From the IMG/VR virus record IMGVR_UViG_3300045988_158846, positions 1-49,604 of that record: DNA of 49,604 nt. One strand, 5' to 3'. Shown piece after piece: positions 73 to 18,341 of the stretch. The position numbers were made by a program, and so were the translations under genes. The stretch comes from a virus. Numbering within the stretch: the first letter of the stretch is position 1; the number at the start of each line of letters is the position of its first letter. A model generated the notes under the pieces. That model worked only from the letters and a program-made list of their open reading frames with translations, was not told the origin of the DNA and searched no databases.

Positions 73-387
73 TTATTTCATTATCTGTGAAAATTCTTCT
101 GTGTGTCCGCAACTATCGCAAGTATAGTAATAGTCTTTTGAACCGCGATAATTTGTAGCACTTGAAAATTGATACTGACCACCGCATTCACAATATCCAT
201 TATTCCAGCGGTCATGATTGCTTTCTTGTTCTTTGTACAATAGAGTTGCAACGCCAAAACCAATAGCAATCGCAATCAGAACAGCAACAACTCTGCCGTG
301 CAAAGTTTCAGGTGCAACAATGGCAATCATCAGAGGAAGAATGGTCAAAACTAACCAAGCAAAATAAAATCCAGGATTTGTAAGCAT
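73..387 (-). CDS. small membrane protein with C-terminal CxC..CxxC zinc-ribbon-like motif (104 aa)
   Basis: ORF track; two hydrophobic helices in the N-terminal half; C-terminal half has CEC...CDSC Cys pairs; TAA stop. Confidence 0.5.
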   Translation of the reverse strand: MLTNPGFYFAWLVLTILPLMIAIVAPETLHGRVVAVLIAIAIGFGVATLLYKEQESNHDRWNNGYCECGGQYQFSSATNYRGSKDYYYTCDSCGHTEEFSQIMK

Positions 388-399
388 TTTATATTCTCC

Positions 400-717
400 T
401 TACAGCCAAATAGTTCCCTGACCACCAGCAGGCGGATTCAGGTTATCGCAGATAATTTCTGCTTCGCCCTCTCCATCTTTGTCTTCGTATTCAACATGGA
501 ATGTCAAATCTCCAACATTATCCAGATAATCCTGAATAGCGGCGATAATTGCGGCCATGTATTTTGCTTCTTTCTCTTGGTCTAACTGGTTAATTCTTTT
601 CTGTGCTAATGCAATCAGGGTCTGCAATTCTTCGGGCTTCTTCTTGTTTATGTAGTTGTGCAAGTCCTGCAAATTCATTGCTTCGACGATAGCGGCGTCC
701 ATAATCATTTTTATCAA
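400..717 (-). CDS. hypothetical acidic protein (105 aa)
   Basis: ORF track; preceded on the minus strand by an extended -10 promoter (TGTATAAT) and RBS AAGGAA; TAA stop. Confidence 0.5.
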   Translation of the reverse strand: MIKMIMDAAIVEAMNLQDLHNYINKKKPEELQTLIALAQKRINQLDQEKEAKYMAAIIAAIQDYLDNVGDLTFHVEYEDKDGEGEAEIICDNLNPPAGGQGTIWL

Positions 718-740
718 TTCCTTTCTTAATTTGTATCTTA

Positions 741-769
741 ATTATACACGATTTCAGGATTTTTGTCTA
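741..769 (-). promoter_or_regulatory. sigma70-like promoter (-35 TAGACA, 17-bp spacer, extended -10 TGTATAAT) for gene 400..717
   Basis: minus-strand reading 'tagacaaaaatcctgaaatcgtgtataat' immediately upstream of RBS and ATG. Confidence 0.45.
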
Positions 770-814
770 TTGGCAGAATAACCAAATTTGTGAATAAAAA
801 ATTGTGCAATGTGC

Positions 815-856
815 TAAAAATCTAAAAATCCTCGCGGCTGGACGTGGCCGCGAGGC
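815..856 (-). terminator. rho-independent terminator (GC hairpin cctcgcggc/gccgcgagg plus U-tract on minus strand)
   Basis: perfect 9-bp GC stem at 829..855 followed on the minus strand by TTTTTAGATTTTT; member of a repeated terminator family (also 2079..2121 and 4395..4421). Confidence 0.6.
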
Positions 857-892
857 TCAAAAAAATTAAGGGGAATTTTCCCCTTAATTATC

Positions 893-1062
893 ATCTGTAT
901 AATCATCAGGCTCGCAATCGCCCCACATGCTGTAGAAATCATCGCAATCATTCATCGGGTCTTCCAGAGTGCAAACGCAGGTTTCTTTCTGGCCATTGAT
1001 TGTGGTTTCATTTTTGAAGTAGGGGCAATCCCAACCATTTACTGGACAGTGGAAATGTTTCA
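893..1062 (-). CDS. Cys-rich mini-protein (56 aa; CP..C...CVC..C)
   Basis: own reading of the minus strand (MKHFHCPVNGWDCPYFKNETTINGQKETCVCTLEDPMNDCDDFYSMWGDCEPDDYTDDN); RBS AAAGGAAAGGA 8 nt upstream; below ORF-track size cutoff. Confidence 0.4.
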
Positions 1063-1092
1063 TGGTATCAATTCCTTTCCTTTGATAAACCT

Positions 1093-1121
1093 ATTGTATC
1101 ATAATAGGGCTTGTTTGTCAA
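1093..1121 (-). promoter_or_regulatory. consensus promoter TTGACA-17-TACAAT for gene 893..1062; -35 box sits inside the 11-bp palindrome 1103..1129
   Basis: minus strand reads 'ttgacaaacaagccctattatgatacaat'; perfect 17-bp spacer. Confidence 0.55.
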
Positions 1122-1130
1122 GCCCTATTT

Positions 1131-1352
1131 TTATTTTTGCCACAAAATCTTGAAGAGGGAGCTCAGAGCCATACGCATAGCAAAGATTTCCATGTATCCA
1201 AACTGCGGCAGGTTGAAATGCCATGCAAAGATATTCCAGCCCCACCAGATGAATGCGGCAGAGGCAAACCAGCCTGCGATTGCTACAATGACAGCACCAA
1301 TAATTGTACTTGCACTCTGGCCCTCAAACTTTTTGAAATCCATTTTTATCAA
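1131..1352 (-). CDS. small membrane protein (73 aa, two predicted TM helices, Trp-rich)
   Basis: ORF track; hydrophobic stretches IIGAVIVAIAGWFASAAFIWWGW; TAA stop. Confidence 0.45.
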   Translation of the reverse strand: MIKMDFKKFEGQSASTIIGAVIVAIAGWFASAAFIWWGWNIFAWHFNLPQFGYMEIFAMRMALSSLFKILWQK

Positions 1353-1389
1353 TTCCTTTCCTTATTATGGTAGGCTATTAAACCTACCA

Positions 1390-1803
1390 TTATTTAACCA
1401 TCGGGCAAACAGTCATTCCATTGTCTTTCATCCAGCAAATGAAATCTTCTGCGGGGAGTTCTTCGGATAATCTCTTGAAACTTAAATCAAAATCCAGCGG
1501 CTTATAAACTGTTTCGCGGAAAATTGGATAGCTGATTTTTTCCGGCTTGTAATCTTCGCCTTTCCAGTATTTCATGTTTTCAATGTGGATTTTCTTGATT
1601 CTTCTGTCAAAAACGCCACGCTTGATTGAACCATTGATGTATCTACTGACGATTTTAACCGCAAGGTCTGTTGTATCTTTGACTTCTTCTCTTGTATCTC
1701 TTGGAGTTTCAGGACAATAAACAAGTTGCGTACTCCAATTCAGAATAGGCTCTTGGCCGTCGTTCATGTTCATGTAAATGCGTTTCCAGTACAGATTTTT
1801 CAT
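1390..1803 (-). CDS. hypothetical protein (137 aa)
   Basis: ORF track; start overlaps the stop of upstream mini-gene (ATGA overlap); TAA stop. Confidence 0.5.
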   Translation of the reverse strand: MKNLYWKRIYMNMNDGQEPILNWSTQLVYCPETPRDTREEVKDTTDLAVKIVSRYINGSIKRGVFDRRIKKIHIENMKYWKGEDYKPEKISYPIFRETVYKPLDFDLSFKRLSEELPAEDFICWMKDNGMTVCPMVK

Positions 1804-1973
1804 TTTTCATTCTCCTTTAACCAATCAATAATCTTTTCACCACATTCGATGCAGTCAATGCCATAGATATCTTCATCATCTCGACACTTGAACATCAGAG
1901 GACAACAAGCACAATCATCAAAAGTCTCGACCCATTGCTCAATGCAGTATTTCAGTTTTTCGTCAGTGTTCAT
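1800..1973 (-). CDS. Cys-rich mini-protein (57 aa; CACC...C..C..C)
   Basis: own reading (MNTDEKLKYCIEQWVETFDDCACCPLMFKCRDDEDIYGIDCIECGEKIIDWLKENEK); RBS AAGGGAGG; translationally coupled to 1390..1803. Confidence 0.4.
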   Translation of the reverse strand: MNTDEKLKYCIEQWVETFDDCACCPLMFKCRDDEDIYGIDCIECGEKIIDWLKENEK

Positions 1974-2004
1974 TAGGTGTTTCCTCCCTTAACCTTGTAC
2001 CAAT

Positions 2005-2033
2005 AGTATAACAGGTATCGGGAAAATTGTCAA
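2005..2033 (-). promoter_or_regulatory. consensus promoter TTGACA-17-TATACT
   Basis: minus strand 'ttgacaattttcccgatacctgttatact' directly upstream of RBS AAGGGAGG and ATG at 1973. Confidence 0.6.
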
Positions 2034-2078
2034 CTGTCATTTTGCACAAAATTTGCGGGTAAAAATTGTGAAAAGTGC

Positions 2079-2121
2079 TGAAAATCTAAAATGCCTGCCG
2101 CGGCGTGGGATCGCGGCAGGC
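2079..2121 (-). terminator. rho-independent terminator; hairpin gcctgccgcggcgtgggatcgcggcaggc plus U-tract
   Basis: 29-nt hairpin with GC stem, followed on the minus strand by ATTTTAGATTTT; core 'ccgcggcgtgggatcgcgg' is repeated at 4395..4421. Confidence 0.65.
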
Positions 2122-2194
2122 TCAAATCAATTTTCCATTTAATTCCAATAGACAAGTAAGAAAATGGGAACCCAAATCTGGATTCCCAAATTTT

Positions 2195-2458
2195 TCAATA
2201 TTCCTGCAAATCTTCCATAATAAGGCCGCCGTTAATGGTATCAATACTATGGAGTTTATGGCCACTTTCTCCAATTCCTTCCAGGGCCTTACAAACATCA
2301 TTGTAAAAATCATCCGAATTTTCATCAAAATAATCATACAAATGATCGCTCAGTACTTCTCCCCAAGGAATATCGCCATAATCTTCCATTGGCTTCCACT
2401 TGTCATCAATTTCCACTTCTACGGGAACGATTTTTTCAACATAGGCTACAACTTTCAT
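2195..2458 (-). CDS. hypothetical acidic protein (87 aa)
   Basis: ORF track; TGA stop; sits between terminator 2079..2121 and upstream genes. Confidence 0.5.
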   Translation of the reverse strand: MKVVAYVEKIVPVEVEIDDKWKPMEDYGDIPWGEVLSDHLYDYFDENSDDFYNDVCKALEGIGESGHKLHSIDTINGGLIMEDLQEY

Positions 2459-2537
2459 TTTTTACCAATCCTTTCAGCCCAAGGCAATCAAAATTTTAAT
2501 GTCCGTTGCTTCTTCCAGCAAAATGTCAAGCTGTTCG

Positions 2538-2732
2538 TCATTCATTTGATTCTTCTCCCCAAGTGATAATTTTTGTGTAGGTCTTTACTCCGAACATGAG
2601 TCTTTTCATGTCCAAAATAAATGAATCGGCATCACGTTCTGTGCGGAAATCTAATTCATTGCTATAATACACTTTTTTTTCATCATAGCCTGAATATTTG
2701 ACAGTAATTTTTTTAGGAATCATCATCTTCAT
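2538..2732 (-). CDS. hypothetical protein (about 64 aa; start at internal Met MKMMIPKK)
   Basis: ORF track ORF trimmed to a Met whose ATG overlaps the 3' end of the upstream gene 2713..2931; TGA stop. Confidence 0.35.
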   Translation of the reverse strand: MKMMIPKKITVKYSGYDEKKVYYSNELDFRTERDADSFILDMKRLMFGVKTYTKIITWGEESNE

Positions 2733-2931
2733 CGTCTCCCCAAATGGCAACAGCCAAAGTATAACAGTCATACCGCAAATCAGATTGAATCTTAAACAGT
2801 TTATCACTTAATTCTTGTGCTTGTGTAAAATCATAAGGGTCTGAGATATTTTTCTTTGCACGGTAAACTTTTCCAGATAATTTTTCAATCTGATTTGCCA
2901 AGTCGGTAAGCTCTTTGAGAATCTCTTTCAT
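2713..2931 (-). CDS. hypothetical protein (72 aa, acidic C-terminus DDEDDDS)
   Basis: ORF track; TAA stop. Confidence 0.45.
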   Translation of the reverse strand: MKEILKELTDLANQIEKLSGKVYRAKKNISDPYDFTQAQELSDKLFKIQSDLRYDCYTLAVAIWGDDEDDDS

Positions 2932-2934
2932 AAT

Positions 2935-3108
2935 TTATTTCTCCCTTACCCAAGAAATAGTTTTTGTAATTCGGTTGACATCTGTTCTATTTTTGATTTT
3001 GTTAATAAAACGGTCTGCTTCTTCCTCTGTATCAAAAATCAATTCTTCAAAATAATTTACGTTCCAGAAATTTACACCAGCGTAATAAACTGTAATTTTC
3101 ATTTCCAT
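2935..3108 (-). CDS. hypothetical mini-protein (57 aa)
   Basis: own reading (MEMKITVYYAGVNFWNVNYFEELIFDTEEEADRFINKIKNRTDVNRITKTISWVREK); fills the gap between neighbouring genes; TAA stop. Confidence 0.35.
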   Translation of the reverse strand: MEMKITVYYAGVNFWNVNYFEELIFDTEEEADRFINKIKNRTDVNRITKTISWVREK

Positions 3109-3135
3109 TTTTATTTCCCCTTATTTGGATGGGCT

Positions 3136-3609
3136 TTATTCAAGCCCATCCAAAATTTCTTTCAGCACATCAAGGATATTTGTGGTCGTGGGGTCAATCG
3201 CCCCGCCCAAGTTCCAATCCCGACGCACTCTTGCATCATCATCAAAAATCAGGGCTTCTTCATCTGCGGCAAGTCGTGCGGCTTCAATCTTATGCTTCGG
3301 CGTTCCATAAGCTACACATCTTAGAGTATCAAATGGAAAACCATATTCTTTCAGCCAAGCCCGTTTTGCTTTTCTGACTTCATCATCATACTGCTTGTTC
3401 GGCTCTTTAGACAGCCAAGTGATAACTGCAACATTGACGCCGCAATTCTGCAAGCTACGGAGCAGACAGGCAAGTTCTGCCATATCAACCAGCGGTTCGG
3501 CGGTCTGATAGGGTGTAGGGTCATAGGCTCGAATTTTGTCAAGCCAATCTTCAACCCCATAGAGGTCAACCAGAGTTCCATCAAGATCGAAGCACAATTC
3601 CTTAATCAT
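3136..3609 (-). CDS. HAD-superfamily phosphatase (5'(3')-nucleotidase-like), 157 aa
   Basis: N-terminal motif I FDLDGTLVD (DxDGT) typical of haloacid dehalogenase-like hydrolases; size and context as in phage nucleotidases; TAA stop inside hairpin 3127..3151. Confidence 0.7.
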   Translation of the reverse strand: MIKELCFDLDGTLVDLYGVEDWLDKIRAYDPTPYQTAEPLVDMAELACLLRSLQNCGVNVAVITWLSKEPNKQYDDEVRKAKRAWLKEYGFPFDTLRCVAYGTPKHKIEAARLAADEEALIFDDDARVRRDWNLGGAIDPTTTNILDVLKEILDGLE

Positions 3610-3642
3610 TTTATCATTTCCTTTCTCTTTTGGAGTATCTTT

Positions 3643-3671
3643 ATTATAACAGGTTCAACCAGATTTGTCAA
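3643..3671 (-). promoter_or_regulatory. consensus promoter TTGACA-17-TATAAT for the HAD phosphatase gene
   Basis: minus strand 'ttgacaaatctggttgaacctgttataat', then RBS AGAGAAAGGAAA and ATG at 3609. Confidence 0.6.
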
Positions 3672-3832
3672 GTGTTTTCTTCAAATTCTTTTTGATTTCT
3701 TTTAAGCAATTCTTCAAGAATTGCTTTCCGAATATCTCTACCGTATTTACTTATATAAGGGGCGTCAAATGTATCAAATGATAACCGCAACATATCAATC
3801 AATTCAGCCGTAGTAGCTTTTTTAATTTCCAT
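3668..3832 (-). CDS. hypothetical mini-protein (about 54 aa from Met MEIKK; longer alternative start at 3877 overlaps upstream gene)
   Basis: ORF track ORF 3668..3877; TGA stop. Confidence 0.3.
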   Translation of the reverse strand: MEIKKATTAELIDMLRLSFDTFDAPYISKYGRDIRKAILEELLKRNQKEFEENT

Positions 3833-3833
3833 T

Positions 3834-4218
3834 TTACACCAGCTTGATATTTTTATAGTTTTTAATGACGCAGGCACTTGCGAATGGCATAATTGACATA
3901 TCTTTTACACCATTATTTACACTGATTTGGATATTTTTTCCATGGGCATAAGCATATCCAATTTCCCAAGCAGTCCCAGAATCAGAATACAGACCATCAT
4001 ATACAACAAACAAGATATCGCATTCTTGAATTGCGGCAACATCCATTTTGAAAACTTCTCTTGCCCAATCCTCTTGCGACATATCCCAAGCGTTCGGGAC
4101 TGTGTGTTCTTGCGGAACATATACATCATGCCCAAGCCGCCGGAAATCAGCCGCATATGAATCAATTCTTGATTTAGTTTCGGGACGGAAAAATGCACCC
4201 GCCATGTAAATTTTCATT
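3834..4218 (-). CDS. nucleoside 2-deoxyribosyltransferase-like protein (127 aa from MKIYMAG)
   Basis: N-terminal MKIYMAGAFF and SDSGTAWEIGYAYAHGK match the hallmark motifs of the nucleoside 2-deoxyribosyltransferase / Rcl family (catalytic Glu in the WEIGY context); RBS AAGGAAA; ORF-track start at 4313 judged too long. Confidence 0.6.
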
Positions 4219-4247
4219 TTTATCATTTCCTTTCCTTTTGTACCCTT

Positions 4248-4276
4248 ATTATAGCACAGGGTAAGCCAAATGTCAA
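4248..4276 (-). promoter_or_regulatory. consensus promoter TTGACA-17-TATAAT for the NDT-like gene
   Basis: minus strand 'ttgacatttggcttaccctgtgctataat'. Confidence 0.6.
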
Positions 4277-4394
4277 GACATAAAATGGAAAATGCTTTCG
4301 TCAAATTGCACAAACATTTTGGGAAAAATTTCCAAGGGTTGGGCTGGAAGGATTTGGAAAACTTTTTTACGTTAGCACTTTAATTTGCGAAATT

Positions 4395-4421
4395 CCGGCC
4401 GCGGCGTGGGATCGCGGCCGG
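4395..4421 (-). terminator. GC hairpin ccggccgcggcgtgggatcgcggccgg (terminator-family repeat; weak U-tract)
   Basis: shares the 19-nt core ccgcggcgtgggatcgcgg with hairpin 2093..2121; flanking conserved motif 'gtgct/tagcac' as at 815 and 2079. Confidence 0.45.
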
Positions 4422-4606
4422 CTCAAATGAATTCCCAAATTATGGGATTGCCAAAATTTTCCGCATTTGATTTTTCAACTGGAAAATTATAGAATTAAAA
4501 CAGAAATAAAAAATTATTTTTTTTATATAAAAAATTATATTATTTTTTTCTATAATTTTCAAATAAGAATTTCCTCCCAAAATATGGGAGGAAACTCAAA
4601 TTGTTT

Positions 4607-4816
4607 TTAGAATTTATAATGCGGAATTTCGGAAGAATCAAGAACTCTTGCTACAGGTTCATCATTTTCGACTAACATATAGTCTTTCCCGCAATGCTTC
4701 TGAATATGGGATTCAGCTTCTGAGCGGCACGAAGCCTCCACAAAAAACAGACGCGGCCAGTCTTTCGTAGGGAGGAAGTTAATTACCAGATACTTCCATG
4801 TTTTATATCCTTCCAT
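4607..4816 (-). CDS. hypothetical protein (69 aa)
   Basis: ORF track; TAA stop, followed by hairpin ttcctccca/tgggaggaa (4571..4595). Confidence 0.45.
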   Translation of the reverse strand: MEGYKTWKYLVINFLPTKDWPRLFFVEASCRSEAESHIQKHCGKDYMLVENDEPVARVLDSSEIPHYKF

Positions 4817-4819
4817 TTT

Positions 4820-5056
4820 TTACCACTCCTTAATATTTAATGTAGCTTCTACGGCATAGACTTTTGCATCATCGGGGAAACAGTCAAATTCTCCGGTAGC
4901 CAAATCAATCGCATTGATTTCATCACCTTCATTGTCAATACATTCTGTTTTCATATGAATTGTGTCTGTTCTTGGGTCGCGGAAAACAGTTCCAACTTCC
5001 AAGGAAGCGAAATGTCTAAATTCTTTTTTCTGTGCAAATTCAATTTTCATTTTCAT
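4820..5056 (-). CDS. hypothetical protein (78 aa)
   Basis: ORF track; RBS AGAAAGGAAAAATG; TAA stop. Confidence 0.45.
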   Translation of the reverse strand: MKMKIEFAQKKEFRHFASLEVGTVFRDPRTDTIHMKTECIDNEGDEINAIDLATGEFDCFPDDAKVYAVEATLNIKEW

Positions 5057-5065
5057 TTTTCCTTT

Positions 5066-5434
5066 CTATCTTTTAACTAATTTTTTTGCCATGTTCTTCT
5101 GAATTGCTTCATATACCACTTTCGGCATTTGCATTTGCCCATTATGTCTGAAAATGGCTGTTGCTTTGTTCATGTTGACATAATACAATGTGATTAGAAA
5201 TTCCATTCGGCTATCTGTAATCAAAATCACACCTGTGTTTGTAATAATCTGCCATTTGTCTTCATATCTGAATTTTGCTACAGGTTCGCCGATTCCTGTA
5301 TTCATTTGAATTTCAACATATCTGTCTAAGCGGTCATCCTTGATATGCTGACTAACTTGCAATTTTGTGATATCCATTTCTAATTTCCTCCTTTTGGAAG
5401 AGGGCTTTTCAGCCCTCATTCCTATCATCTTCAA
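5066..5434 (-). CDS. hypothetical protein (122 aa); apparent stop codon is TAG
   Basis: ORF track; stop = reverse complement of 5066..5068 (cta) = TAG; the TAG is in frame with the ATG of the downstream gene 4820..5056. Confidence 0.5.
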   Translation of the reverse strand: MKMIGMRAEKPSSKRRKLEMDITKLQVSQHIKDDRLDRYVEIQMNTGIGEPVAKFRYEDKWQIITNTGVILITDSRMEFLITLYYVNMNKATAIFRHNGQMQMPKVVYEAIQKNMAKKLVKR

Positions 5435-5609
5435 TGTAGCGATTCAGAAATTCTTCGCAGGTTTCCGCGGTTTCATCCATATGACAAGCGGAATAGAACG
5501 GGCAGGTGGCACAGTCGCTATGACCTGTAATAAGGTTGATAAGCATTTCCTTATCGAGAATTTCATTTGCAAAAGTAGACATTTTCATTTTCATTTCCCC
5601 CTTAATCAA
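5409..5609 (-). CDS. Cys-rich mini-protein (66 aa; C.TC....C, C)
   Basis: ORF track; TGA stop overlapping the start of 5066..5434. Confidence 0.4.
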   Translation of the reverse strand: MIKGEMKMKMSTFANEILDKEMLINLITGHSDCATCPFYSACHMDETAETCEEFLNRYIEDDRNEG

Positions 5610-5742
5610 TATAAGTAGACATTAGACAAACCCATTCGCGGCTCTCATACTTCGGGCTTCTCTCCCTAGCGTCTGCTAGGGAGTAGCCATATGCAGTCTC
5701 AGTTTCGCCCGTGTTGACGTTGTACATCTCAAATTCAAACAT
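5602..5742 (-). CDS. hypothetical mini-protein (46 aa from MFEFEMYN)
   Basis: strong RBS GAGGAGGA 6 nt upstream of this internal Met; the 5' extension of the ORF-track ORF overlaps the neighbouring gene out of frame. Confidence 0.35.
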   Translation of the reverse strand: MFEFEMYNVNTGETETAYGYSLADARERSPKYESREWVCLMSTYID

Positions 5743-5746
5743 GATG

Positions 5747-5923
5747 TTAGTCCTCCTCGATGCAACCGCAGACTGTGTACCACAGACCCATATACTCGTC
5801 ATAGTTGCGGGCATATGTGTTGCAGAAATCATTGATAGATTCCGTACTGAAATCATGGTCATTATCAATCCATTCGTTCAGCAGTTCAGCGATTCTTTCA
5901 GTAGTCATTTTTTGTATCTCCAT
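5747..5923 (-). CDS. hypothetical mini-protein (58 aa, ends CGCIEED)
   Basis: own reading (MEIQKMTTERIAELLNEWIDNDHDFSTESINDFCNTYARNYDEYMGLWYTVCGCIEED); downstream of promoter 5957..5985. Confidence 0.35.
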   Translation of the reverse strand: MEIQKMTTERIAELLNEWIDNDHDFSTESINDFCNTYARNYDEYMGLWYTVCGCIEED

Positions 5924-5956
5924 TTCATTTTTTATTCGTTCCCTTGGAACAATTAT

Positions 5957-5985
5957 ATATTAGCACACCCTATAGCAAATGTCAA
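5957..5985 (-). promoter_or_regulatory. consensus promoter TTGACA-17-TAATAT
   Basis: minus strand 'ttgacatttgctatagggtgtgctaatat'. Confidence 0.55.
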
Positions 5986-6150
5986 TAGGAAAGTCAAATT
6001 TTTTTATTCGTCAATATGCACAAAGATTCTGGAAATAAATGGTATGGAATTATATGTCATAAGCTGGTAGGATATGGGAAATGGAACATAATGTCAGATA
6101 TGGTAAAATTTGACTGGAAATATTCGGAATTGGTATTAAATGGAAAATGC

Positions 6151-6196
6151 GGGGCGCGGCGAGCCTGCTGTGGATATAGCAATTTCGCCGCGCCCC
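6151..6196 (-). terminator. GC hairpin (12-bp stem ggggcgcggcga/tcgccgcgcccc, 22-nt loop); probable terminator of gene 6299..6619
   Basis: perfect 12-bp GC stem; located 100 bp downstream of the minus-strand gene end. Confidence 0.4.
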
Positions 6197-6298
6197 GGTC
6201 AGGCACTTCATTTGATTAAAGTGCTAATGATGTAAAGAAGATGATTTGAAAAATGGACTGGAAACTGTTTCCAATTTCCAGCCCTTGGGATTTCAGGA

Positions 6299-6619
6299 TT
6301 AGACCGCCTGGTGTGCCAGATTATTCCAATCGTAAATGATGCCCTGAAGATGCTCACTTGCAACTTCTCTTGCTTGCCGCCGCGTATAGGTATGTTCGGT
6401 CAGGCTGACATAATACTTTCCATCTTTGAAACGAATCTGGCAGCTCTTTCCAAAATTTCGAGTCAAATGCTTCATCCATTCAACTGCTTTTTCTGGAGTG
6501 TCAAGGATAACTGTGGCGGTATTCACTTGAAAACCGCCCTTGTACTTTTTGATATTGCCGTTCTTAAGGTTCAGGGTATCGCCATCCTGCATTTTCCGAA
6601 TAGTTCTCACGTTAATCAT
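6299..6619 (-). CDS. hypothetical protein, paralog A of a tandem duplicate pair (106 aa)
   Basis: ORF track; N-terminus MINVRTIRKMQDGDTLNLKNGNIKKYKGGFQV aligns with MINIRTIKKLADGDGLTLKNGKIKRYKSGYQV of 6642..6953. Confidence 0.55.
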   Translation of the reverse strand: MINVRTIRKMQDGDTLNLKNGNIKKYKGGFQVNTATVILDTPEKAVEWMKHLTRNFGKSCQIRFKDGKYYVSLTEHTYTRRQAREVASEHLQGIIYDWNNLAHQAV

Positions 6620-6641
6620 TTTTTATTTCTCCTCTCAAATA

Positions 6642-6953
6642 TTAAATATAAAGGCAGGCAGGATTTCCACGCCATCTGTAAATTGAAAGCTGGTTACATT
6701 TCTTGCCAATTTCAACTGCCTCGCGTTTAGTGGAAACTCGTTTGGAAATGTCAATGTAATATCTGCCATTCTCAACCCAAACGCCGCATGTGCCCTTAAA
6801 CTCTCGAACCGCCTGTATTGCCATTTCAGGGCTTATGACTTCAACTCCATTAGTGGCCACCTGGTAGCCACTCTTGTACCTCTTGATTTTTCCATTCTTA
6901 AGGGTCAGACCATCGCCGTCAGCCAGCTTTTTGATTGTGCGAATGTTAATCAT
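6642..6953 (-). CDS. hypothetical protein, paralog B of the tandem duplicate pair (103 aa)
   Basis: ORF track; clear similarity to 6299..6619 over the first ~60 residues. Confidence 0.55.
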   Translation of the reverse strand: MINIRTIKKLADGDGLTLKNGKIKRYKSGYQVATNGVEVISPEMAIQAVREFKGTCGVWVENGRYYIDISKRVSTKREAVEIGKKCNQLSIYRWRGNPACLYI

Positions 6954-6968
6954 ATAAGATTCTCCTTT

Positions 6969-7139
6969 TCAAATTTCACTTGTAAGAACAGCACACATTT
7001 CACCGTTCATATGCTTATAGACATTGTACTCGATGCCCTTAAAGGAATCAGTATAGAGATAATTCCAATAGATACCATATACATAAGAGAATGGCTTTAC
7101 TGGCAAGATGCCATCCAACAGGGTCTTGATGGTTTCCAT
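6969..7139 (-). CDS. hypothetical mini-protein (56 aa)
   Basis: own reading (METIKTLLDGILPVKPFSYVYGIYWNYLYTDSFKGIEYNVYKHMNGEMCAVLTSEI); start 1 nt after the stop of the upstream gene. Confidence 0.35.
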   Translation of the reverse strand: METIKTLLDGILPVKPFSYVYGIYWNYLYTDSFKGIEYNVYKHMNGEMCAVLTSEI

Positions 7140-7140
7140 T

Positions 7141-7293
7141 TTAATCCTCCATCATCACGAAGAAATTCCAGCTACTGTATTCAGGTCTGCCGCCAGCAGG
7201 GTTATTATGGCGGACCACCTGACAAAATGAAACAGAAATCCAGAGCATAATGATAATGCCGGACAGAGTTAACGCAAGTTTGAGATTTTTCAT
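7141..7293 (-). CDS. small membrane mini-protein (50 aa)
   Basis: own reading (MKNLKLALTLSGIIIMLWISVSFCQVVRHNNPAGGRPEYSSWNFFVMMED); N-terminal hydrophobic helix. Confidence 0.35.
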   Translation of the reverse strand: MKNLKLALTLSGIIIMLWISVSFCQVVRHNNPAGGRPEYSSWNFFVMMED

Positions 7294-7361
7294 TTTGAAA
7301 TTTTCCTTTCGACTTTTGGATTCATGTGCTCGGTTGAATTGTCAGAGAGCGGTAGAGGGAC

Positions 7362-7661
7362 TCAAATGTCCCTCACCACTAACGTCAGGTGGTCTGCCGT
7401 ATGCTCGATTGCCTGTACAATCTGATAGCTTGTGAAATGGTAAGTTGTCAGCAGGCCAGAAGTAAATACCGCAGACCGACTGCCGAACTCTACAATTTCC
7501 AGCTCCTGCATGATGTAGAGCTTTTCTTCGAGTTCACGGTAGAAGGCAGGCTGCCAAGGGCAGTTGAATGTGCTGGATAATTGCCATCTGCAATAATCAG
7601 TTTGAACATTGTTCTTATCAAGAAAACGGATTTCAGCATAGGGATTTCGTGCAGTTGCCAT
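7362..7661 (-). CDS. hypothetical protein (99 aa)
   Basis: ORF track; TGA stop. Confidence 0.45.
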   Translation of the reverse strand: MATARNPYAEIRFLDKNNVQTDYCRWQLSSTFNCPWQPAFYRELEEKLYIMQELEIVEFGSRSAVFTSGLLTTYHFTSYQIVQAIEHTADHLTLVVRDI

Positions 7662-7695
7662 ATTGTATCATCCTTTCTATTGGAAGCCAAGGGTT

Positions 7696-7884
7696 TTAAC
7701 CCTTGGCTCTGTAGATTTCTTTGCCTTTGGTGAACTGGCTCATGACTTCACCAGTCTCCATGTCAATGACATCTCTGTCATTCCGTGCCCATAAGCTGTA
7801 GGCATGTGCCATGGCTCGTGCTGCGGTCAGGCTATGGTAGATTGTGCCATACTGACCAGTCGTATGATTATAGATAGAGTACAT
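7696..7884 (-). CDS. hypothetical protein (62 aa from MYSIYNH; longer ORF-track start less likely)
   Basis: RBS AAAGGGGA 6 nt upstream of this Met; TAA stop inside palindrome gccaagggtt/aacccttggc (7685..7707). Confidence 0.4.
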   Translation of the reverse strand: MYSIYNHTTGQYGTIYHSLTAARAMAHAYSLWARNDRDVIDMETGEVMSQFTKGKEIYRAKG

Positions 7885-7919
7885 GATGTTATCCCCTTTC
7901 TGATGTTCTGGTTGAGCTA

Positions 7920-8279
7920 TTAGCTCAACCAGATCTGTTTGCTCGTTGCGATAGACCAGCGACGCCGACTTGCTGCCAGCCGCTCGACTTCCCACTTGAC
8001 CCATTCAGAGCAACCGCATTCGTCCATATCAGCGAAAATACGCTCCAGCTCCATATGGTCGCTCTTCATTGAGTGCTCGGTATAGTTTGCCTTAGCAATC
8101 TGCCGTGCAATATAGTCCTTCTGGTCCAGCAGCTTGTGGAAGGTGGCCTTGCCATCAGGCTTAGAGAAATTAACCCTGTTCATGGCGTCGTTGATGTGAA
8201 GGATAGTGTTCATCATCGCTTCCTTCCGGATTGCTCTTCGGTTGATACGGTTCATAGTTTTACCTCCATATATTGTCAA
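7920..8279 (-). CDS. hypothetical protein (119 aa)
   Basis: ORF track; TAA stop. Confidence 0.5.
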   Translation of the reverse strand: MTIYGGKTMNRINRRAIRKEAMMNTILHINDAMNRVNFSKPDGKATFHKLLDQKDYIARQIAKANYTEHSMKSDHMELERIFADMDECGCSEWVKWEVERLAASRRRWSIATSKQIWLS

Positions 8280-8309
8280 AAGTGTTGTTAGGTGTACAGG
8301 TGAAGAAGC

Positions 8310-8714
8310 TTATGCTTCTTCACCATATAGCAGGTCATGCAGTTTGTAGAAGAAGTCTTCGAGCATATGTTCAAAGATATCTGTCCATTCCTCGGCTTCT
8401 TCTTGCAGGTCTGTCAGCTTTTCATAGGCGGCTTCCCATTCTACGCAGGGATTCCCAGCCTCGGCGTCCGGTCGATAGTCGATATGCTCAAGGTCATATT
8501 CAGCACTATCGATAGCCCAAGTCAGGTTATCCCATGCGTCGATATTCTTTGCCGCATACTCATGATACTTATCCAGCATCCCATCATAGTCGAAGCTACT
8601 GCCAAGCATATGGTACCGCTTGACATATGCTATCAAGTCCTGTGCCTGCTCTGCTAACTCTGCCTTGATAGCCTTTTGTTTGTCCTGTTCGCTTGTTTTA
8701 ATTGTATATACCAT
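8310..8714 (-). CDS. hypothetical acidic protein (134 aa); first gene of the leftward early array
   Basis: ORF track; TAA stop within palindrome tgaagaagc/gcttcttca (8300..8322). Confidence 0.5.
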   Translation of the reverse strand: MVYTIKTSEQDKQKAIKAELAEQAQDLIAYVKRYHMLGSSFDYDGMLDKYHEYAAKNIDAWDNLTWAIDSAEYDLEHIDYRPDAEAGNPCVEWEAAYEKLTDLQEEAEEWTDIFEHMLEDFFYKLHDLLYGEEA

Positions 8715-8740
8715 AATTATATCAATCCTTTACATATTAT

Positions 8741-9100
8741 TTGACTGTTAGTTGTCAGCTGTCCGTGTCGCTATTTGCCGTAGGCGTTGGACTGCCCTAC
8801 AGCTTGCACCGCACCTTCCATGTTCTACCATTGCGTCCGCGGTGCGGTGCAGACGCTTGGCTTAAATTTACTTTTCAAGGTGCAAGCGGTTCGGTGCTGT
8901 CCGCGTCTGCCGGTCATTTTACGTCATTCAAGAGAACTTGCTGTGTTTGTCTCTGTCCTCTTGACATTTTGAATTGTACCACACGCGGTTCTGTTTGTCA
9001 AGAACTTTTTTTCATTTTTTCTTGACTTTTTTTCGCTTGCCTTGCGGCTTGCTTTTCGTTGTCCCGTGGGTCACTTTCTGATTCTAATTATAGCGGCTAT
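8741..9100. other. GC-rich (~55% GC) structured non-coding region between the two arms; candidate ncRNA, origin or packaging site
   Basis: no credible ORF (plus-strand ORFs 8741..9025 and 8787..8972 have no RBS and atypical composition); long hairpin 8805..8851 (11-bp stem tgcaccgcacc/ggtgcggtgca); repeated gtcaagaact at 8997 and 9110. Confidence 0.35.
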
Positions 9101-9251
9101 TTCTGAAAAGTCAAGAACTAATTTTGAAAAAATCGAATTATTTTTTTAGGGGGTTAGTCGTATCTAACTTGCTTCACTTGAATAAAGCAAGACAATAGAC
9201 TTTGATCCTTTAGTCAAATGAAGTGGGGGGGCGGTGTTTCGTGAAAAAAAA

Positions 9252-9337
9252 ATGGAAAAAATGGAAAAATCTTCCTGCCTGGAAAAATAATTTCTAAACC
9301 CATTTTCAATTCTAAAAAACGAAGATAATTTCTAAAC
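9252..9337. repeat. iteron-like direct repeats: (a)atggaaaaa x2 plus tggaaaaa, and 13-nt ataatttctaaac x2 (9287..9299, 9325..9337)
   Basis: seen directly in sequence; AT-rich non-coding stretch next to G-rich tract aagtgggggggcgg (9221..9236). Confidence 0.45.
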
Positions 9338-9354
9338 TAGAATACGGATAAATT

Positions 9355-9390
9355 TATAAAAAAAAATAAGCGGGAAAATAATTTCCCGCT
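9355..9390 (-). terminator. rho-independent terminator of the leftward regulatory operon (hairpin gcgggaaaataatttcccgc plus 10-nt U-tract)
   Basis: perfect hairpin 9370..9389 followed on the minus strand by TTATTTTTTTTTT. Confidence 0.65.
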
Positions 9391-9423
9391 TTAATATTAT
9401 TCTTTAATCACTCGATATCCATT

Positions 9424-9666
9424 CTATTCCAAGGTTTCTTTTGCAAGAGCTACGGCATCACTGGCTTCAGGACATTCAATACATAAAAAAGTTTTACCAT
9501 CTACTTCGTCAATATAAAATTCATAATTATGACCATTTACCATATGCAATTCTTCACGAAGTTTAGAAGGAATCATTAAACGTCCAACTGTATCGAGTTT
9601 TCTTGTATAAGCTGTTTTCAGCATTAAACTCACTCCTTTCTTTTTAATTGGGAGAGTGCGAGCCAT
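9424..9666 (-). CDS. AbrB/MazE/SpoVT-family DNA-binding protein (80 aa); apparent stop codon TAG
   Basis: GRLMIPSKLREEL matches the swapped-hairpin AbrB-type DNA-binding motif (GRVVIP.E.R..L); stop = reverse complement of 9424..9426 (cta) = TAG. Confidence 0.55.
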   Translation of the reverse strand: MARTLPIKKKGVSLMLKTAYTRKLDTVGRLMIPSKLREELHMVNGHNYEFYIDEVDGKTFLCIECPEASDAVALAKETLE

Positions 9667-9744
9667 CCCACAGATTTTATAACTTATTTTACAAAATTTT
9701 TTATCTCATGTCAAAAATTTTTTTTAACAAAATCTTAACATAAA

Positions 9745-10182
9745 TTAGTCAAAAGGAACAATACCTTCATTAGGGTCAATTACTCCTCGTTCTTGATGGA
9801 ACCGATAATTAGTATATCCATTTTTAAACTTATAAACTTCTACTTCAGGTATAATATATTGGTCTTCTTTATCTACAATTTTAGAACCAAGAGTAATACC
9901 GATTGGATCGCCTTCTTCTTCATATTTAGATAAATCAATAGACATTAAATCTTTTTTGTTTTTAATAACATGGACTATTCCAGGCCCAATATATTTTTCT
10001 TCTAGCCCTTTATTATATTCAATATATTTCTTATCGCTTTTAAAATTCATAAAATCTTCAAGCGCTTTAGTATAATCTTTATAGATTTTTGCTTCAATAA
10101 TTTTATCATAAATAAATCTGGCCGCGCATCCTAATCCAAGTACCGCACCACTACCTAAAAGAAGCCCATGAACAAACTTCAT
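9745..10182 (-). CDS. membrane-anchored protein (145 aa from MKFVHG; N-terminal TM helix)
   Basis: RBS GAGGGAAG upstream of the second Met; hydrophobic LLLGSGAVLGLGCAA; TAA stop. Confidence 0.45.
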   Translation of the reverse strand: MKFVHGLLLGSGAVLGLGCAARFIYDKIIEAKIYKDYTKALEDFMNFKSDKKYIEYNKGLEEKYIGPGIVHVIKNKKDLMSIDLSKYEEEGDPIGITLGSKIVDKEDQYIIPEVEVYKFKNGYTNYRFHQERGVIDPNEGIVPFD

Positions 10183-10217
10183 TAAATCACTTCCCTCAAT
10201 TTTCAAATATAATATAT

Positions 10218-10373
10218 TTACTTTTTCTTACGCTCTTTGGTAGGATTATAAGCTCCTTGCTGTTTAGGGTTTTCGCCCCACATAATTTGATAAATAGCTC
10301 TTGTTGCACTATTAGTCGCTCTACGTTTAGCTTTAGAAGCCATACTGCCTAAAATACCACGAGGTTTTCTCAT
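10218..10373 (-). CDS. small basic protein (51 aa, Lys/Arg-rich)
   Basis: own reading (MRKPRGILGSMASKAKRRATNSATRAIYQIMWGENPKQQGAYNPTKERKKK); first gene downstream of leftward promoter 10403..10432. Confidence 0.4.
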   Translation of the reverse strand: MRKPRGILGSMASKAKRRATNSATRAIYQIMWGENPKQQGAYNPTKERKKK

Positions 10374-10485: not shown

Positions 10486-10514
10486 TTGACTTTGCAAATT
10501 TTTTGTGTTATAAT
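10486..10514 (+). promoter_or_regulatory. rightward consensus promoter TTGACT-17-TATAAT heading the structural module; same extended motif as 26934..26962
   Basis: 'ttgactttgcaaattttttgtgttataat'; motif ttgactttg.aaatttttt.tgttataat is shared with the second copy. Confidence 0.6.
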
Positions 10515-10542: not shown

Positions 10543-11607
10543 TTGATAAAATTAGATTATACTCTTGAAACTCCTGAAGAAAGAAATGAATTAGTAAAAA
10601 AAATCTTAGAAGAAAATCCAAATCCTAATGAAAAGTATTTAGAAATTCTTGCAGATTATCTAATTCTATGTATGGAGAAACAAGAAAAAAAAGAAAAGAA
10701 AATATTAACTGATAATAGATTAATGACAGTTAATAAGCGTGAAACTTCATTTGAAGGTCTTGTTTCCCAGTTAGAGAATGGTGAAGATGGTATATATAAT
10801 TTAATTAATAGTGATAAAAATATGATATTTTAGCCAAAAGTTACAATTACAAAAAAAGATTTAGAAGAAATTCCGAGCTTAAAACAATTAAAAGACGCTA
10901 TTACAACTTGGGAAGCAAAAATGAAAGTAGTGAGTGGTAAAGATGCTTTCACTATAAAAAAAGCCTTAATAGAAATGCGTAAAGACCAATATGTTATTAA
11001 AAATGCTTATCGGAAGCCAATAGTACCAGTAAAACTTACACGGTCCAAATATAAAATTAAGTTAGATGAAGATGTAAAAATATTTGATGATGATGGATAT
11101 CCAATTCCAGAAGGCGTCTCATTGATGAACCCTGAAATTTGCTCTTGCATTTTATGCAATTATTCTCGGTTAAAAGAAGACAGTTGGGACCGTTTTGAAG
11201 ATGATACTTGGTATCTCATCTATGATTTTGAAAATATTTGTGATGAGGCTTTGGCTGAATATCCTATGTTAATGCGTATTGTAGAATGTAAAATTGATGG
11301 ATTACAAAATATAGAAATTCAAAAAATTTTACAAGAAGAATTTAATATTACTCATAGTTTAGAATATATATCAAGTTTATTCCGCAATAAAATACCAAAG
11401 CTTATTGCCGATAAAGCTGTTGATAAATATTTAGAGTGGTATTATACAACTCAAGAAAAAGGCAAATATAAAAAATGTAGTCGATGTGGGCAAATCAAAT
11501 TAGCTCACAATAAATATTTTTCCTATAACAAAACAAGTAAAGATGGATTTTATAGTATATGTAAAAAATGCCGAAATAGTTCTCGCAAAGAAAAAATGAA
11601 ATCCTAA
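10543..11607 (+). CDS. hypothetical protein with C-terminal zinc-ribbon (CSRCG...CKKC), ~354 aa, TTG start, one in-frame TAG at 10831
   Basis: ORF-track ORFs 10486..10833 and 10921..11607 are in the same frame and joined by a single TAG; RBS GGAGG 8 nt before TTG. Confidence 0.45.
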
Positions 11608-11625
11608 AGAAAGGAGAAATATTGA

Positions 11626-12840
11626 TTGTCCAGCGAAGGTAAACAATATTATTGTGAAAAATGTAATAAAACTATGGATGGAACTTAGTTTTATACATCT
11701 AATAATTTAGATAAATATCCTAATGATGGTAAATTACCAAAATGCAAGAAATGTATAACAATGCATGTGGATAATTGGAATCCGGATACTTATTTATGGA
11801 TATTGCAAGAATGTGATGTTCCTTACATTCCTGAATAGTGGAATTAGTTAATGGGTAAATTTGCGAAAGATAGAGCGAAAGTCACTGGAATGACAATATT
11901 GGGTCGCTATCTCTCTGCAATGAAATTAAATCAATGGAAAGATTATAGATGGAAAGATAGTCAATTCTTGCAAGATTTACAAAACAAAAAAATAGAAGAA
12001 ACAATGAAGCAATAGGGGTATGATATTCAAGATATTACTACTGCTATTCAACGAGCTTCATTCTCTTTGCCGTCAGAAGAATTAAAAGAGCCGCCTCCTC
12101 CCACCCCTCCTCCCTTAGATTTTGGGAATTCTGGGGAAGATTATTTTAAAGATAAATTAGATTTTGATGTTCCTGACTTAGGTGCAGAGCTGACAGACGA
12201 AGATAAACGATATCTTTATTTAAAATGGGGAAAAGGCTATAGTCCCGATGAATGGGTACGCCTAGAGCAATTATTCAATGAAATGATGCAATCTTATGAT
12301 ATTCAATCGGCAGGTCATATTGATACATTAAAACTGGCCTGTAAGACATCACTAAAATCTAATTAGCTATTGGATATAGGTGATGTAGATGGCGCACAAA
12401 AGATGATTAAAATGTATGATTCCTTAATGAAATCGGGCAAATTTACTGCTGCTTAGAATAAAGAAGAATCTGGTGATTTCGTTGATTCTGTTGGTGAATT
12501 AATAGAAATGTGTGAGAAACAAGGATATATCGAAAGATATTATATTGATACTCCAAATGATAAAGTAGATTTTACAATTAAAGATATGTAGAAATATACT
12601 CGTACTTTAATTGAGCGAGAAACTAATCTTGGCAATATGATTGATTAGGCATTAAAACAAAACGCTAAAGAAGATAAAGAAGCCAAAGAAAACGTCGAAG
12701 ATACAATTGTTGATGATGTTGATATGTCTATTGAAGATATTGAAAAAACTTTGGAAGATAAAGATATTGAAGACTTTGGCGAATTTTTAGATAACGAGAC
12801 AGAGTTAGATATAGATGCTTTCTCTGACAGAGAAAATTAA
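11626..12840 (+). CDS. hypothetical protein with N-terminal CxxC...CxxC zinc-ribbon and acidic C-terminal half (~404 aa), 11 in-frame TAG codons; possible small terminase / packaging partner
   Basis: continuous frame from TTG 11626 (RBS AAAGGAG) to TAA 12838, containing ORF-track ORF 12067..12366; stop overlaps the terminase start. Confidence 0.45.
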
Positions 12841-14591
12841 TGGCATTACAAGACTTGCTTGACCTATCTACTAGTAGAAAAAAGATAGGTCTTTCTGAAG
12901 AACGTATTAATGCTGTAATTCCAATCATCCGTAAATATACTGCCTTTTGGCGTGAATATCCAGATTTATTTGTAGATTTTTTAGTGCGAGGAACGCGCAC
13001 AGAACCAAAAGAAGGAGAGTTTAAATTCTTTTTCTATTAGCGCGTTTTCTTACGCTGTGTTATGCGTTATCAATACGTTTATGCAGTTTTCCCTCGTGCT
13101 TATTCTAAATCATTCTTGTCAGTTATGGCATTGATGGTCAGATGTATTCTTTATCCTGGAGTCCATTTATTTGTTACTTCTGGTGGTAAGGAACAGGGTG
13201 CGAGCATCTTACACGATAAAGTTAATGAAATTTGTGATTTAATTCCCAGTTTTAAACGTGAAATTGATTGGGGTCGTGGCAAGAGCCAAGAGAGCAAGGA
13301 TAAAGTTCGCTATGTATTTAAAAATGGTTCTGTCCTTGATAACTTAGCAGCAAGAGAAAGCACCCGTGGCCAGCGTCGTCATGGTGGTTTGATGGAAGAA
13401 TGTGTAGGTATTGATGATTAGATTTTGCGTGAAGTCATTATACCAGTTATGGCAATTCCTCGTAGAGCTAAAGATGGTACAACCCATGAAGAAGAAGCAG
13501 TTAATAAATCTCAGATTTATATTACTACTGCTGGTTATAAAAATACATATCCTTATGATAGATTGATCGGCCTATTAGTTCGTATGATTACGCAGCCTGA
13601 TAGATGTATGGTATTAGGTGGTACGTGGCGAACTCCTGTCGCTGTTGGATTACAATAGAAAACATTTATTACTGACCAAAAGAATGAAGGAACTTATAAT
13701 GAAGCTTCTTTTGAACGTGAATATGAATCAATTTGGTCTGGTACTGTTGAAGATGCTTTCTTTAATGCCGAAATATTTAATAGAAATAGAATATTGAATT
13801 AGCCTGAGTATGAAGCTTCTGGCCGTTCAAGCAAGTTATCTTATTATATATTAAGTGTTGATGTAGGCCGTAGAGTATGTGATACTGTTATTTGCGTATT
13901 TAAAGTAACACCGCAACCACATGGTGAACCGATTAAAAGCTTAGTTAATATTTATACTATGAATGATACTCATTTTGAGGATTAGGCTATTAAACTTAAA
14001 AAATTATATTATAAATATAAAGCTCGTAGAATTGTAATAGATGCTAATGGACTTGGTGTTGGTTTAATTGATTTTATGGTTAAGCCATAGATTAATCCTG
14101 AAACTTCTGAAATAATTCCTGATTTTGGAGTTTATGGTGGAACTTAGGATGATGCGATTTAGGAATATAAAAAGTATAAAACTAATAGTACAGAATTAGA
14201 TGTTTTATATCTAATGAAAGCTAATGCACCAATTAATACTGAAGCTCATAGCATTACTTAGTCAGTACTAAATTCTGGCAAAATTAAATTTTTAATAGAT
14301 GAACGAATGGCTAAATAGAAATTATTAACTACTAAAGTTGGTTAGAATATGACCACAGAAGCGCGGTCTGATTATTTAAGACCATTTAGTTTAACTACTT
14401 CATTACGTGAAGAGATTATGAATTTGCGTGAAGAAAATGAAGGTTTAAATATTATTTTAAAACAAGCTAATAAAAGTATTAAAAAAGATAAATTTTCTGC
14501 ATTAGAATATGGATTATATTATATAAAAAAAATAGAAGAAGATAAAAAGAAGAAAAAATTCCGGGCTGCTGATTGGATGTTTATGAATTAA
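12840..14591 (+). CDS. terL: terminase large subunit, T4 gp17-like (583 aa), 12 in-frame TAG codons
   Basis: ATPase motifs in T4 gp17 order: Y-[TAG]-R adenine-binding position, Walker A (RAYSKS), ILHDKVNEICDLIP (cf. gp17 [13 protein letters not shown]), Walker B/catalytic (GGLMEEC, cf. IYIEDC), coupling motif (IYITTAGY, cf. IIITTTPNG), nuclease-domain Asp cluster (ILSVDVGRR); frames of ORF-track pieces 12840, 13062, 13425 and 14349 join through TAGs. Confidence 0.85.
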
Positions 14592-14600
14592 GCCGGGCAA

Positions 14601-14644
14601 CTCTTATTATTCTTTTAAATTAATTTTTAAAAGAATAATAAGAG
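14601..14644 (+). terminator. 17-bp perfect palindrome (ctcttattattctttta/taaaagaataataagag) after terL; probable terminator
   Basis: seen directly; followed by AATTTATTTG. Confidence 0.5.
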
Positions 14645-14679
14645 GAATTTATTTGTAGATAAGAAAGGAGACTTAATAT

Positions 14680-15036
14680 ATGGATGCCAGTCGTGCGGAA
14701 ATTAAGATTAGAGAAATCTTAGAGGAAGCCGGCCTGAATTTTAAAATGGAGTATATATTTCCAGATTTAAAAACACATAATGGTCGTCCTTTACGTTTTG
14801 ATTTTGTTATATTTGATGATGATAATAATATTGATTTTTTAATTGAATATCAAGGTAAATAGCATTATGAAGCCAGTAATAAGTTTGGCGGAAAACGTGG
14901 TTTATATCAATAGCAATATAACGATAATCAAAAACGTAGATTCTGTGCTTTACATGATTTACATTTAATAGAAATTCCTTATACAGAAGAAAATTTAATT
15001 TCTTACGATTATATAATGCGAAAGGCTGGATATTAA
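14680..15036 (+). CDS. small PD-(D/E)XK-type nuclease-like protein (DUF559/Vsr-like), 118 aa, 2 in-frame TAGs
   Basis: motif FDFVIFDDD...IDFLIEYQGK[TAG]HY resembles the D...E.K core of Vsr/DUF559 endonucleases; lies between terL and portal where homing endonucleases are common. Confidence 0.4.
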
Positions 15037-15053
15037 TTGAAAGAAGGTGAAGT

Positions 15054-16742: not shown

Positions 16743-16754
16743 GGAGGATTTATA

Positions 16755-18317: not shown

Positions 18318-18341
18318 TAAATTTTTAAGGAGGAAAACCTA

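Follow-up and report, generated by a model that had tools for sequence, protein, structure and literature searches.

When a virus uses two genetic codes in one genome, does a given TAG codon end a protein or stand inside it? We asked this of a 49,604-nucleotide (nt) stretch of IMG/VR virus record IMGVR_UViG_3300045988_158846 (positions 1 to 49,604; hereafter the window), in which an earlier note had singled out two minus-strand TAG codons, one at 5068..5066 where two small early genes adjoin, and one at 9426..9424 in a gene for a regulator of the AbrB/SpoVT type. Our answer, to which we give a joint probability of about 0.8, is that the window comprises a divergent control region, with the arms on either side of it, from a ~188 kb tailed phage that reads TAG as glutamine (Gln; code 15), and that the regulator TAG is a recoded Gln codon and the junction TAG a stop. 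Protein comparison makes the phage a distant relative of the phAss-1 group of gut phages: its portal is 38% identical to the phAss-1 portal, and its tape measure of 3090 amino acids (aa) and fibre of 1070 aa fit the description of that group (PMC10607447). Close relatives of 104-189 kb with the same gene order as the window were present among IMG/VR, ENA and Logan contigs, and nucleotide searches with both arms against GenBank phages gave no match.

Two codes in one genome

Plus-strand open reading frames (ORFs) of at least 150 aa amounted to 3,643 aa under the standard code and to 13,611 aa when TAG was read as sense, and no other stop reassignment gave a strand-consistent gain. From 10.5 kb to its end, the plus strand is a single block of long frames rich in in-frame TAG, including a frame of 3,115 codons with 110 TAGs (27606..36953). 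For the leftward arm we used 25 curated minus-strand genes in 73..8714, all with AAGGAG-type ribosome sites; their 2,216 codons hold 71 CAA/CAG and no TAG, and they stop on TAA (18), TGA (6) and TAG (1). The 23 rightward genes, counting the first one at 10543..11607 with its one TAG, contain 271 in-frame TAG versus 325 CAA/CAG, so that TAG makes up 45% of Gln codons, and of the 22 late genes that are complete, 20 stop on TAA and two on TGA, none on TAG. At the late-gene rate, the absence of TAG among 71 early Gln codons has P = 2e-19. The single TAG stop in 25 early genes is no excess (P of one or fewer = 0.09 if TAG were 15% of stops). The earlier note had proposed a standard-code early arm beside a late arm that reads TAG as sense, and the rescue of ORFs together with the counts of 0/71 against 271 bears this out. 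The layout is real, and it has already been published for other phages (bioRxiv 10.1101/2021.08.26.457843; PMC9523058; PMC10607447).

We aligned three late proteins with their relatives to determine what TAG encodes. In the TAG columns, 87 of the 116 cells without TAG were CAA or CAG, and these alignments show that TAG stands for Gln in the late genes. TAG and CAA/CAG replaced one another even between proteins 98% identical, and about 9 of 40 TAG columns in the same set were invariant. The base after a sense TAG is most often A (104/271); both of the singled-out TAGs precede A, and next-base context cannot tell them apart.

The promoters and the gene content lead us to infer early and late timing. 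The leftward genes would come first, transcribed by host RNA polymerase and read by host ribosomes in their unmodified state, which can translate the TAG-free early genes; once a suppressor is at hand, proteins with TAG in their genes could be made at full length. The second code does not look two-state in its use. In a relative, TAG made up 0% of the Gln codons over the first ~15 kb of the leftward arm, 3-5% over the next 25 kb and 9-22% beyond, and in the distal replication block of relatives its share was 6-31% per 5-kb bin and 19% overall (measured in L002, L139, L144, L230 and L135, IMGVR_UViG_3300045988_164317). This points to a use of the second code that is graded with distance from the early promoters.

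The arms also differ in composition. Early genes (73..8714) have a GC content of 0.41 and a third-codon-position GC of 0.43, versus 0.30 and 0.17 in late genes (10543..49604). Early genes may be matched to the codon usage of the host, and late genes may depend on tRNAs that the phage itself supplies. Three late genes without TAG (19136..20272, 20374..20940 and 24274..25437) have a GC content of 0.37-0.39, above that of their neighbours, and one of the three has a match to a PHROG family of virion structural proteins; another late gene, 18342..19118, has one TAG and a GC content of 0.42. If the TAG-poor late genes encode the most abundant virion proteins, this suggests that decoding TAG is costly at high expression.

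The two leftward TAG codons

Under the standard code, the regulator ORF would be 9424..9666, beginning at an ATG at 9666 and ending on TAG 9426..9424. Indels put this upstream ATG out of frame in relatives, and we place the start at ATG 9624, which is preceded by AAAGGAG. The gene then spans 9397..9624 on the minus strand with 75 codons, of which the TAG is Gln codon 67, followed by N-G-Y-R-V-I-K-E and the stop TAA at 9399..9397. We compared 22 distinct coding sequences from relatives. Codon 67 was TAG in 19 of them and CAG in three, all of the P0004 lineage; close relatives keep the TAG, which occurs in three of four lineages, and the P0004 lineage is itself recoded, its neighbouring gene bearing TAGs. 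Variable sites at codon positions 1/2/3 numbered 1/1/7 in codons 68-75 and 19/13/51 in codons 1-66, with synonymous changes such as GGA/GGG/GGT, GTA/GTG, AAA/AAG, TAT/TAC and TCT/TCA/TCC. All 22 sequences stayed open through to a TAA stop, giving products of 75-77 aa. The third-position bias and the open frame in all 22 indicate that the tail is translated and under purifying selection, also within the lineages that bear TAG. By this comparison, TAG 9426..9424 is an ordinary recoded Gln codon and not a stop. The earlier note had let the regulator end on this TAG, which is contradicted by CAG in the sister lineage, by the conserved eight-codon tail and by the TAA end. Its statement that only two minus-strand genes end on TAG is right for credible leftward ORFs under the standard code, and wrong in that the regulator TAG is not its end.

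The regulator is predicted to be a swapped-hairpin DNA-binding protein of the AbrB/SpoVT type. The alignment with SpoVT, AbrB and Abh covers residues 2-52 and the N-terminal domains of those proteins, whose fold is the AbrB/SpoVT/MazE/MraZ swapped hairpin; Pfam MraZ scored 24.6 bits (cut-off 23), sequence matches in the PDB ranged from E 9e-4 to 4e-3 (SpoVT 2ro5, 9e-4; AbrB 1z0r, 3.5e-3), and PHROG 4681 matched as well. Unlike those proteins, the 75-aa regulator has a lineage-specific C-terminal helix and strand that would hold the recoded Gln. In a single-chain AF2 model, which has low confidence (pLDDT 62.8), codon 67 falls where the C-terminal helix ends, ahead of the final strand. No toxin partner gene is evident beside it. 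A tblastn search with the regulator against GenBank phages gave no match, a point of difference from the phAss-1 group. Ahead of the gene lies a sigma-70-type promoter (9686..9714, minus strand; TTGACA-17-TAAAAT, 11/12 matches) that is kept in relatives. An intrinsic terminator (9368..9391, minus strand) follows directly on the TAA; it has a 10-bp stem with five GC pairs and a T run, and is conserved, with compensatory changes in one relative (L005). With its own promoter and terminator, the gene would form a self-contained unit. It would yield a 66-aa form when TAG is not suppressed and, upon suppression, the full 75-aa form, which is the form under selection.

The TAG at the early-gene junction behaves in the opposite way. 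The upstream gene (5066..5377, minus strand) has the ribosome-binding site AAAGGAGG and ATG 5377, and encodes 103 aa (MDITKLQV...KKLVKR) before TAG 5068..5066; its homologues all begin MDITKLQV, and searches of Pfam and PHROG gave no match to the protein. The downstream gene (4820..5056, minus strand) is an independent early gene of 78 aa with its own ribosome-binding site and ATG, and its product aligns over the full length with PHROGs 7431, 6570, 7832 and 8365, whose profiles span 72-79 aa. Between the two lies a cassette, TAG-AAAGGAAAAAT-ATG (5054..5068, minus strand), that joins the upstream stop, a Shine-Dalgarno site and the downstream ATG; a second ATG stands at 5050..5048, near the downstream start. 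The junction reads KKLVKR-TAG-AAA-GGA-AAA-ATG-AAA-ATG, in frame with 4820..5056. The earlier note had thus described the TAG stop and its frame correctly, but not the start: it had given the gene as 5066..5434, with 122 aa and a 203-aa fusion, and from ATG 5377 a read-through product would have 185 aa. By chance, one neighbour in three would be in frame.

Relatives have the junction in three architectures. In architecture A, the TAG is in frame and the cassette TAGAAAGGAAAAAT is identical; this was found in 10 of the 14 distinct junction sequences (window, L001, L005, L039-L045, L386, L387), including the most diverged close relative (L005, 77% identity). In architecture B, one nt fewer precedes the cassette, so that the upstream gene ends ...KHRKEK-TAA, the downstream ATG lies in frame +2, and the TAG letters are still present, out of frame; this clade comprises four IMG/VR contigs (137-188 kb) and ten 90% protein clusters (P0014-P0023). 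Architecture C has an ATGA overlap with a TGA stop (L046-L049, P0027). The cassette is conserved in every relative, even behind a strongly diverged upstream allele (L045). No sense codon was found at the junction TAG: every catalogue 'fusion' that we read at the DNA level has TAG, never CAA or CAG, the opposite of the regulator pattern. These comparisons indicate that TAG 5068..5066 is the genuine stop of the early gene. They likewise indicate that the in-frame linkage is dispensable and not itself selected, the in-frame TAG being kept in most relatives because the ribosome-binding-site cassette that carries it is conserved intact. After TAG suppression, some 185-aa fusion may form as a by-product in architecture A.

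The earlier note had suggested, as an alternative to coincidence, a conditional read-through by design, with two proteins made early and a functional fusion (185 aa from the corrected start) once TAG is decoded, and had held that relatives with the genes in different frames or separated by TAA or TGA would refute it. The in-frame TAG and 12-nt spacer in 10 of 14 variants, L005 and L045 among them, fit this proposal, as does a 3-nt insertion that preserves the frame (P0012/L386). However, clades B and C are relatives of just this refuting kind, having retained both genes but in different frames and with TAA or TGA stops, and a sense codon replaces the TAG in none of the lineages. Conservation of the 12-nt spacer is to be expected in any event, since it serves as ribosome-binding site for the downstream gene, the downstream protein belongs to a stand-alone family of 72-79 aa, and 3-nt indels are ordinary for any coding C-terminus. 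Two signs of programmed read-through are missing: the frame relation is not kept across relatives, and the downstream gene has a conserved AAAGGA site and ATG of its own. We regard a designed fusion as highly unlikely. Even less credit goes to the view, taken by gene callers that apply code 15 to a whole contig, that 4820..5377 is one 185-aa gene with Gln at the junction. Catalogue proteins of 184-186 aa (P0007-P0013, P0026) agree with it, but all that speaks against a designed fusion applies here too, the rest of the early arm has no TAG among 71 Gln codons, a strong Shine-Dalgarno site and ATG follow immediately on the TAG, and contigs of the same architecture (L042, L044) were called as 103 + 76 aa.

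The regulator TAG might alternatively serve as a switch, with a 66-aa form lacking the last predicted strand before suppression and a 75-aa form after it; the two would differ in oligomerisation or DNA binding and so report the state of the code, and could, for example, shut off nearby early promoters. This would suit a gene with a near-consensus host-type promoter, its own terminator and TAG-free early neighbours, in which the TAG falls after a complete AbrB-type domain (residues 2-52) and, in the low-confidence model, between the C-terminal helix and the final strand, and is retained in three of four lineages. The recoded lineage with CAG shows that the TAG is dispensable, however, and conservation of a TAG is unremarkable when ~9/40 TAG columns are invariant despite fast exchange with CAA and CAG. 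Codon 67 is also the only Gln of the protein, so that its position carries no statistical weight. We therefore consider a switch unlikely. For the arms themselves, a GC-richer TAG-free genome misassembled with an AT-rich recoded one would account for the GC step from 0.41 to 0.30 near 8.7 kb, but the chance of this is negligible: many assemblies made independently, by different pipelines and from different samples, show the identical junction and gene order (IMG/VR, ENA, Logan). This synteny rules out misassembly as the source of the GC step.

Several observations weigh against our reading of the two TAGs. The regulator sits among TAG-free genes that look immediate-early and has a host-type promoter; its TAG is not trivially a 'late' codon, and a role for the 66-aa form is conceivable. 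Ten of the 14 junction variants keep the TAG in frame, and on sequence alone selection for a read-through product is possible in these. We infer suppression by a phage tRNA(CUA), and none was found in the window, in ~118 kb of relatives or in the sampled part of the family's tRNA array.

The control region and the search for a suppressor tRNA

Sigma-70-type promoters were found on the minus strand at 9114, 9001, 9714 and 10431 and on the plus strand at 10486; they cluster within 8.97-10.5 kb, and the genes closest to them on the left are the TAG-free ones. Those at 9114..9087 and 9001..8973, near-consensus with 11/12 matches each, lie in tandem (8973..9114, minus strand, annotated together with the leader for the early arm) and share the motif TTCTTGAC. 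They fall in a 680-nt minus-strand stretch without a credible ORF (8715..9396), of which 8973..9114 lacks any standard-code ORF. The 680-nt stretch also holds a GC-rich leader of ~260 nt that folds somewhat better than shuffled sequence (z = -2.3). Rfam gave nothing at gathering scores over the whole window, and a scan of 8600..9450 at E up to 1 gave only chance-level matches. The genes 9745..10185 and 10218..10373 of the control region stop on TAA.

The first rightward gene (10543..11607, plus strand; 354 aa) has a sigma-70-type promoter at 10486..10514 and a single TAG at 10831..10833, codon 97. The protein matches PHROG 5767, 'sigma factor' (E 1e-52), and belongs to a family of 6,471 database proteins at E up to 1e-5. 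Its sigma label is unconfirmed, with no Pfam sigma domain found and an AF2 model (pLDDT 66.6) whose best PDB match by Foldseek had E 0.26; the C-terminus is Cys-rich with a zinc-ribbon-like motif (CSRCG...CKKC). Q97 is invariant in 24 homologues. The codon is TAG in the family of the window and in the P0083 lineage, and CAA or CAG in the P0074 lineage, whose TAG is at codon 212.

Two putative regulators at divergent promoters thus bear one TAG each and would be made at full length only after suppression. The code switch could on this basis lie upstream of the transcription switch, with the 66- and 75-aa forms of the AbrB-type regulator acting differently at the early promoters. We think this decidedly unlikely. 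If suppression did gate the regulators, code change and transcription timing would be connected in a way that can be tested. A special conservation of the TAGs in the two genes was ruled out, since about 9 of 40 TAG columns in neighbouring genes are equally invariant and TAG exchanges freely with CAA/CAG; in more distant lineages, moreover, the TAG of the rightward gene is found at other positions. As far as alignments can tell, these TAGs are probably not special.

We searched for the suppressor with ARAGORN, which in a control on phAss-1 called 33 tRNAs with tRNA(CTA) among them. It found no tRNA in the window and none in ~118 kb walked in relatives. An array of 12-13 tRNAs lies ~55 kb along the leftward arm, after a radical-SAM gene (L306, OIXL01000006.1, 13082..18959; also L308 and L309). 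Its sampled part contained neither tRNA(CUA) nor an NTCTARN anticodon loop followed by a T-loop, with ~60 kb of the genome not covered. More distant relatives carry the tRNA array at another position, and one of them (L233) has tRNA(CTA). One tRNA in the family array, at L306:18872..18959 (also L308:10336..10423 and L309:20154..20238), was called tRNA-Trp(CCA) by ARAGORN. Its length is 85-88 nt, its variable arm is long, a G precedes its 3' CCA end, and it directly follows tRNA-Ser(GCT); its best Rfam match was tRNA-Sec, below the gathering score. A Ser-type body with a Trp anticodon would be unusual.

Related systems, annotation and other genes

The closest described system is phAss-1, of the proposed Phassvirus, a TAG-to-Gln gut Caudoviricetes phage (Babkin et al. 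2023, PMC10607447) that NCBI places in the 'Caudoviricetes code 15 clade'. Like that group, the phage studied here has TAG-to-Gln recoding in its terminase, portal, tape measure and fibre genes, a tape measure of ~3100 aa and a fibre of 1070 aa, a large genome with a minus-strand block of small genes, a gut origin and Firmicutes-style ribosome-binding sites. It differs in genome size (~188 kb against 136 kb) and in its tRNAs: phAss-1 has 33-36, including tRNA(CUA), in one array, whereas the array of the present family has another location and, as far as it was sampled, no CUA anticodon. An early-standard/late-recoded model has been put forward for alternatively coded phages (Borges et al., bioRxiv 10.1101/2021.08.26.457843; Peters et al. 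2022, PMC9523058), and the present genome shares with it TAG-free early genes beside recoded structural and late genes, TAA as the preferred stop and a low GC content. Unlike in that model, the TAG share rises gradually along the leftward arm (0%, 3-5%, 9-30%), and two putative regulators at divergent promoters bear a single TAG each.

The junction also bears comparison with local read-through of a stop codon. The A1 protein of Qbeta is made by read-through of the coat-protein UGA, and both cases have a stop followed by an open frame and a longer product if the stop is decoded. At the junction, in contrast, what would be the 'extension' is an entire gene that carries its own signals for initiation, two lineages no longer have it in frame with the stop, and read-through would stem from a change of code across the genome rather than from a local signal.

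The phage is a new lineage of a known type. Scientifically the finding adds little, the layout being published and the fusion idea failing the comparison with relatives. Its consequence is for annotation, as applying one code per contig yields wrong genes both ways. With code 11 the regulator is cut short and the first rightward gene falls into two ORFs at its one TAG. Code 15 merges the two early genes into a 185-aa protein, and such proteins form clusters with hundreds of member sequences in public catalogues. These catalogues (P0001, P0007-P0013, P0026) contain the early-gene 'fusions' of 184-186 aa as well as an 89-aa regulator that starts at the non-conserved upstream ATG.

The recoded late and structural arm (11626..49604, plus strand) encodes, among others, the tape measure and fibre and three proteins with PHROG matches: the large terminase (12840..14591), the portal (15054..16742) and a virion structural protein (24274..25437). 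The leftward early arm (73..8714, minus strand) has 25 small genes with no in-frame TAG and a GC content of 0.41. It includes a nucleoside 2-deoxyribosyltransferase (Pfam PF05014, E 2e-21) and a 5'-3' deoxyribonucleotidase-like protein (3834..4223 and 3136..3609), and farther along, relatives carry a SAM synthetase, a radical-SAM enzyme and an anaerobic ribonucleotide reductase. The early genes 6299..6619 and 6642..6953 are tandem paralogues of 106 and 103 aa, ~42% identical, whose copy number varies among relatives.

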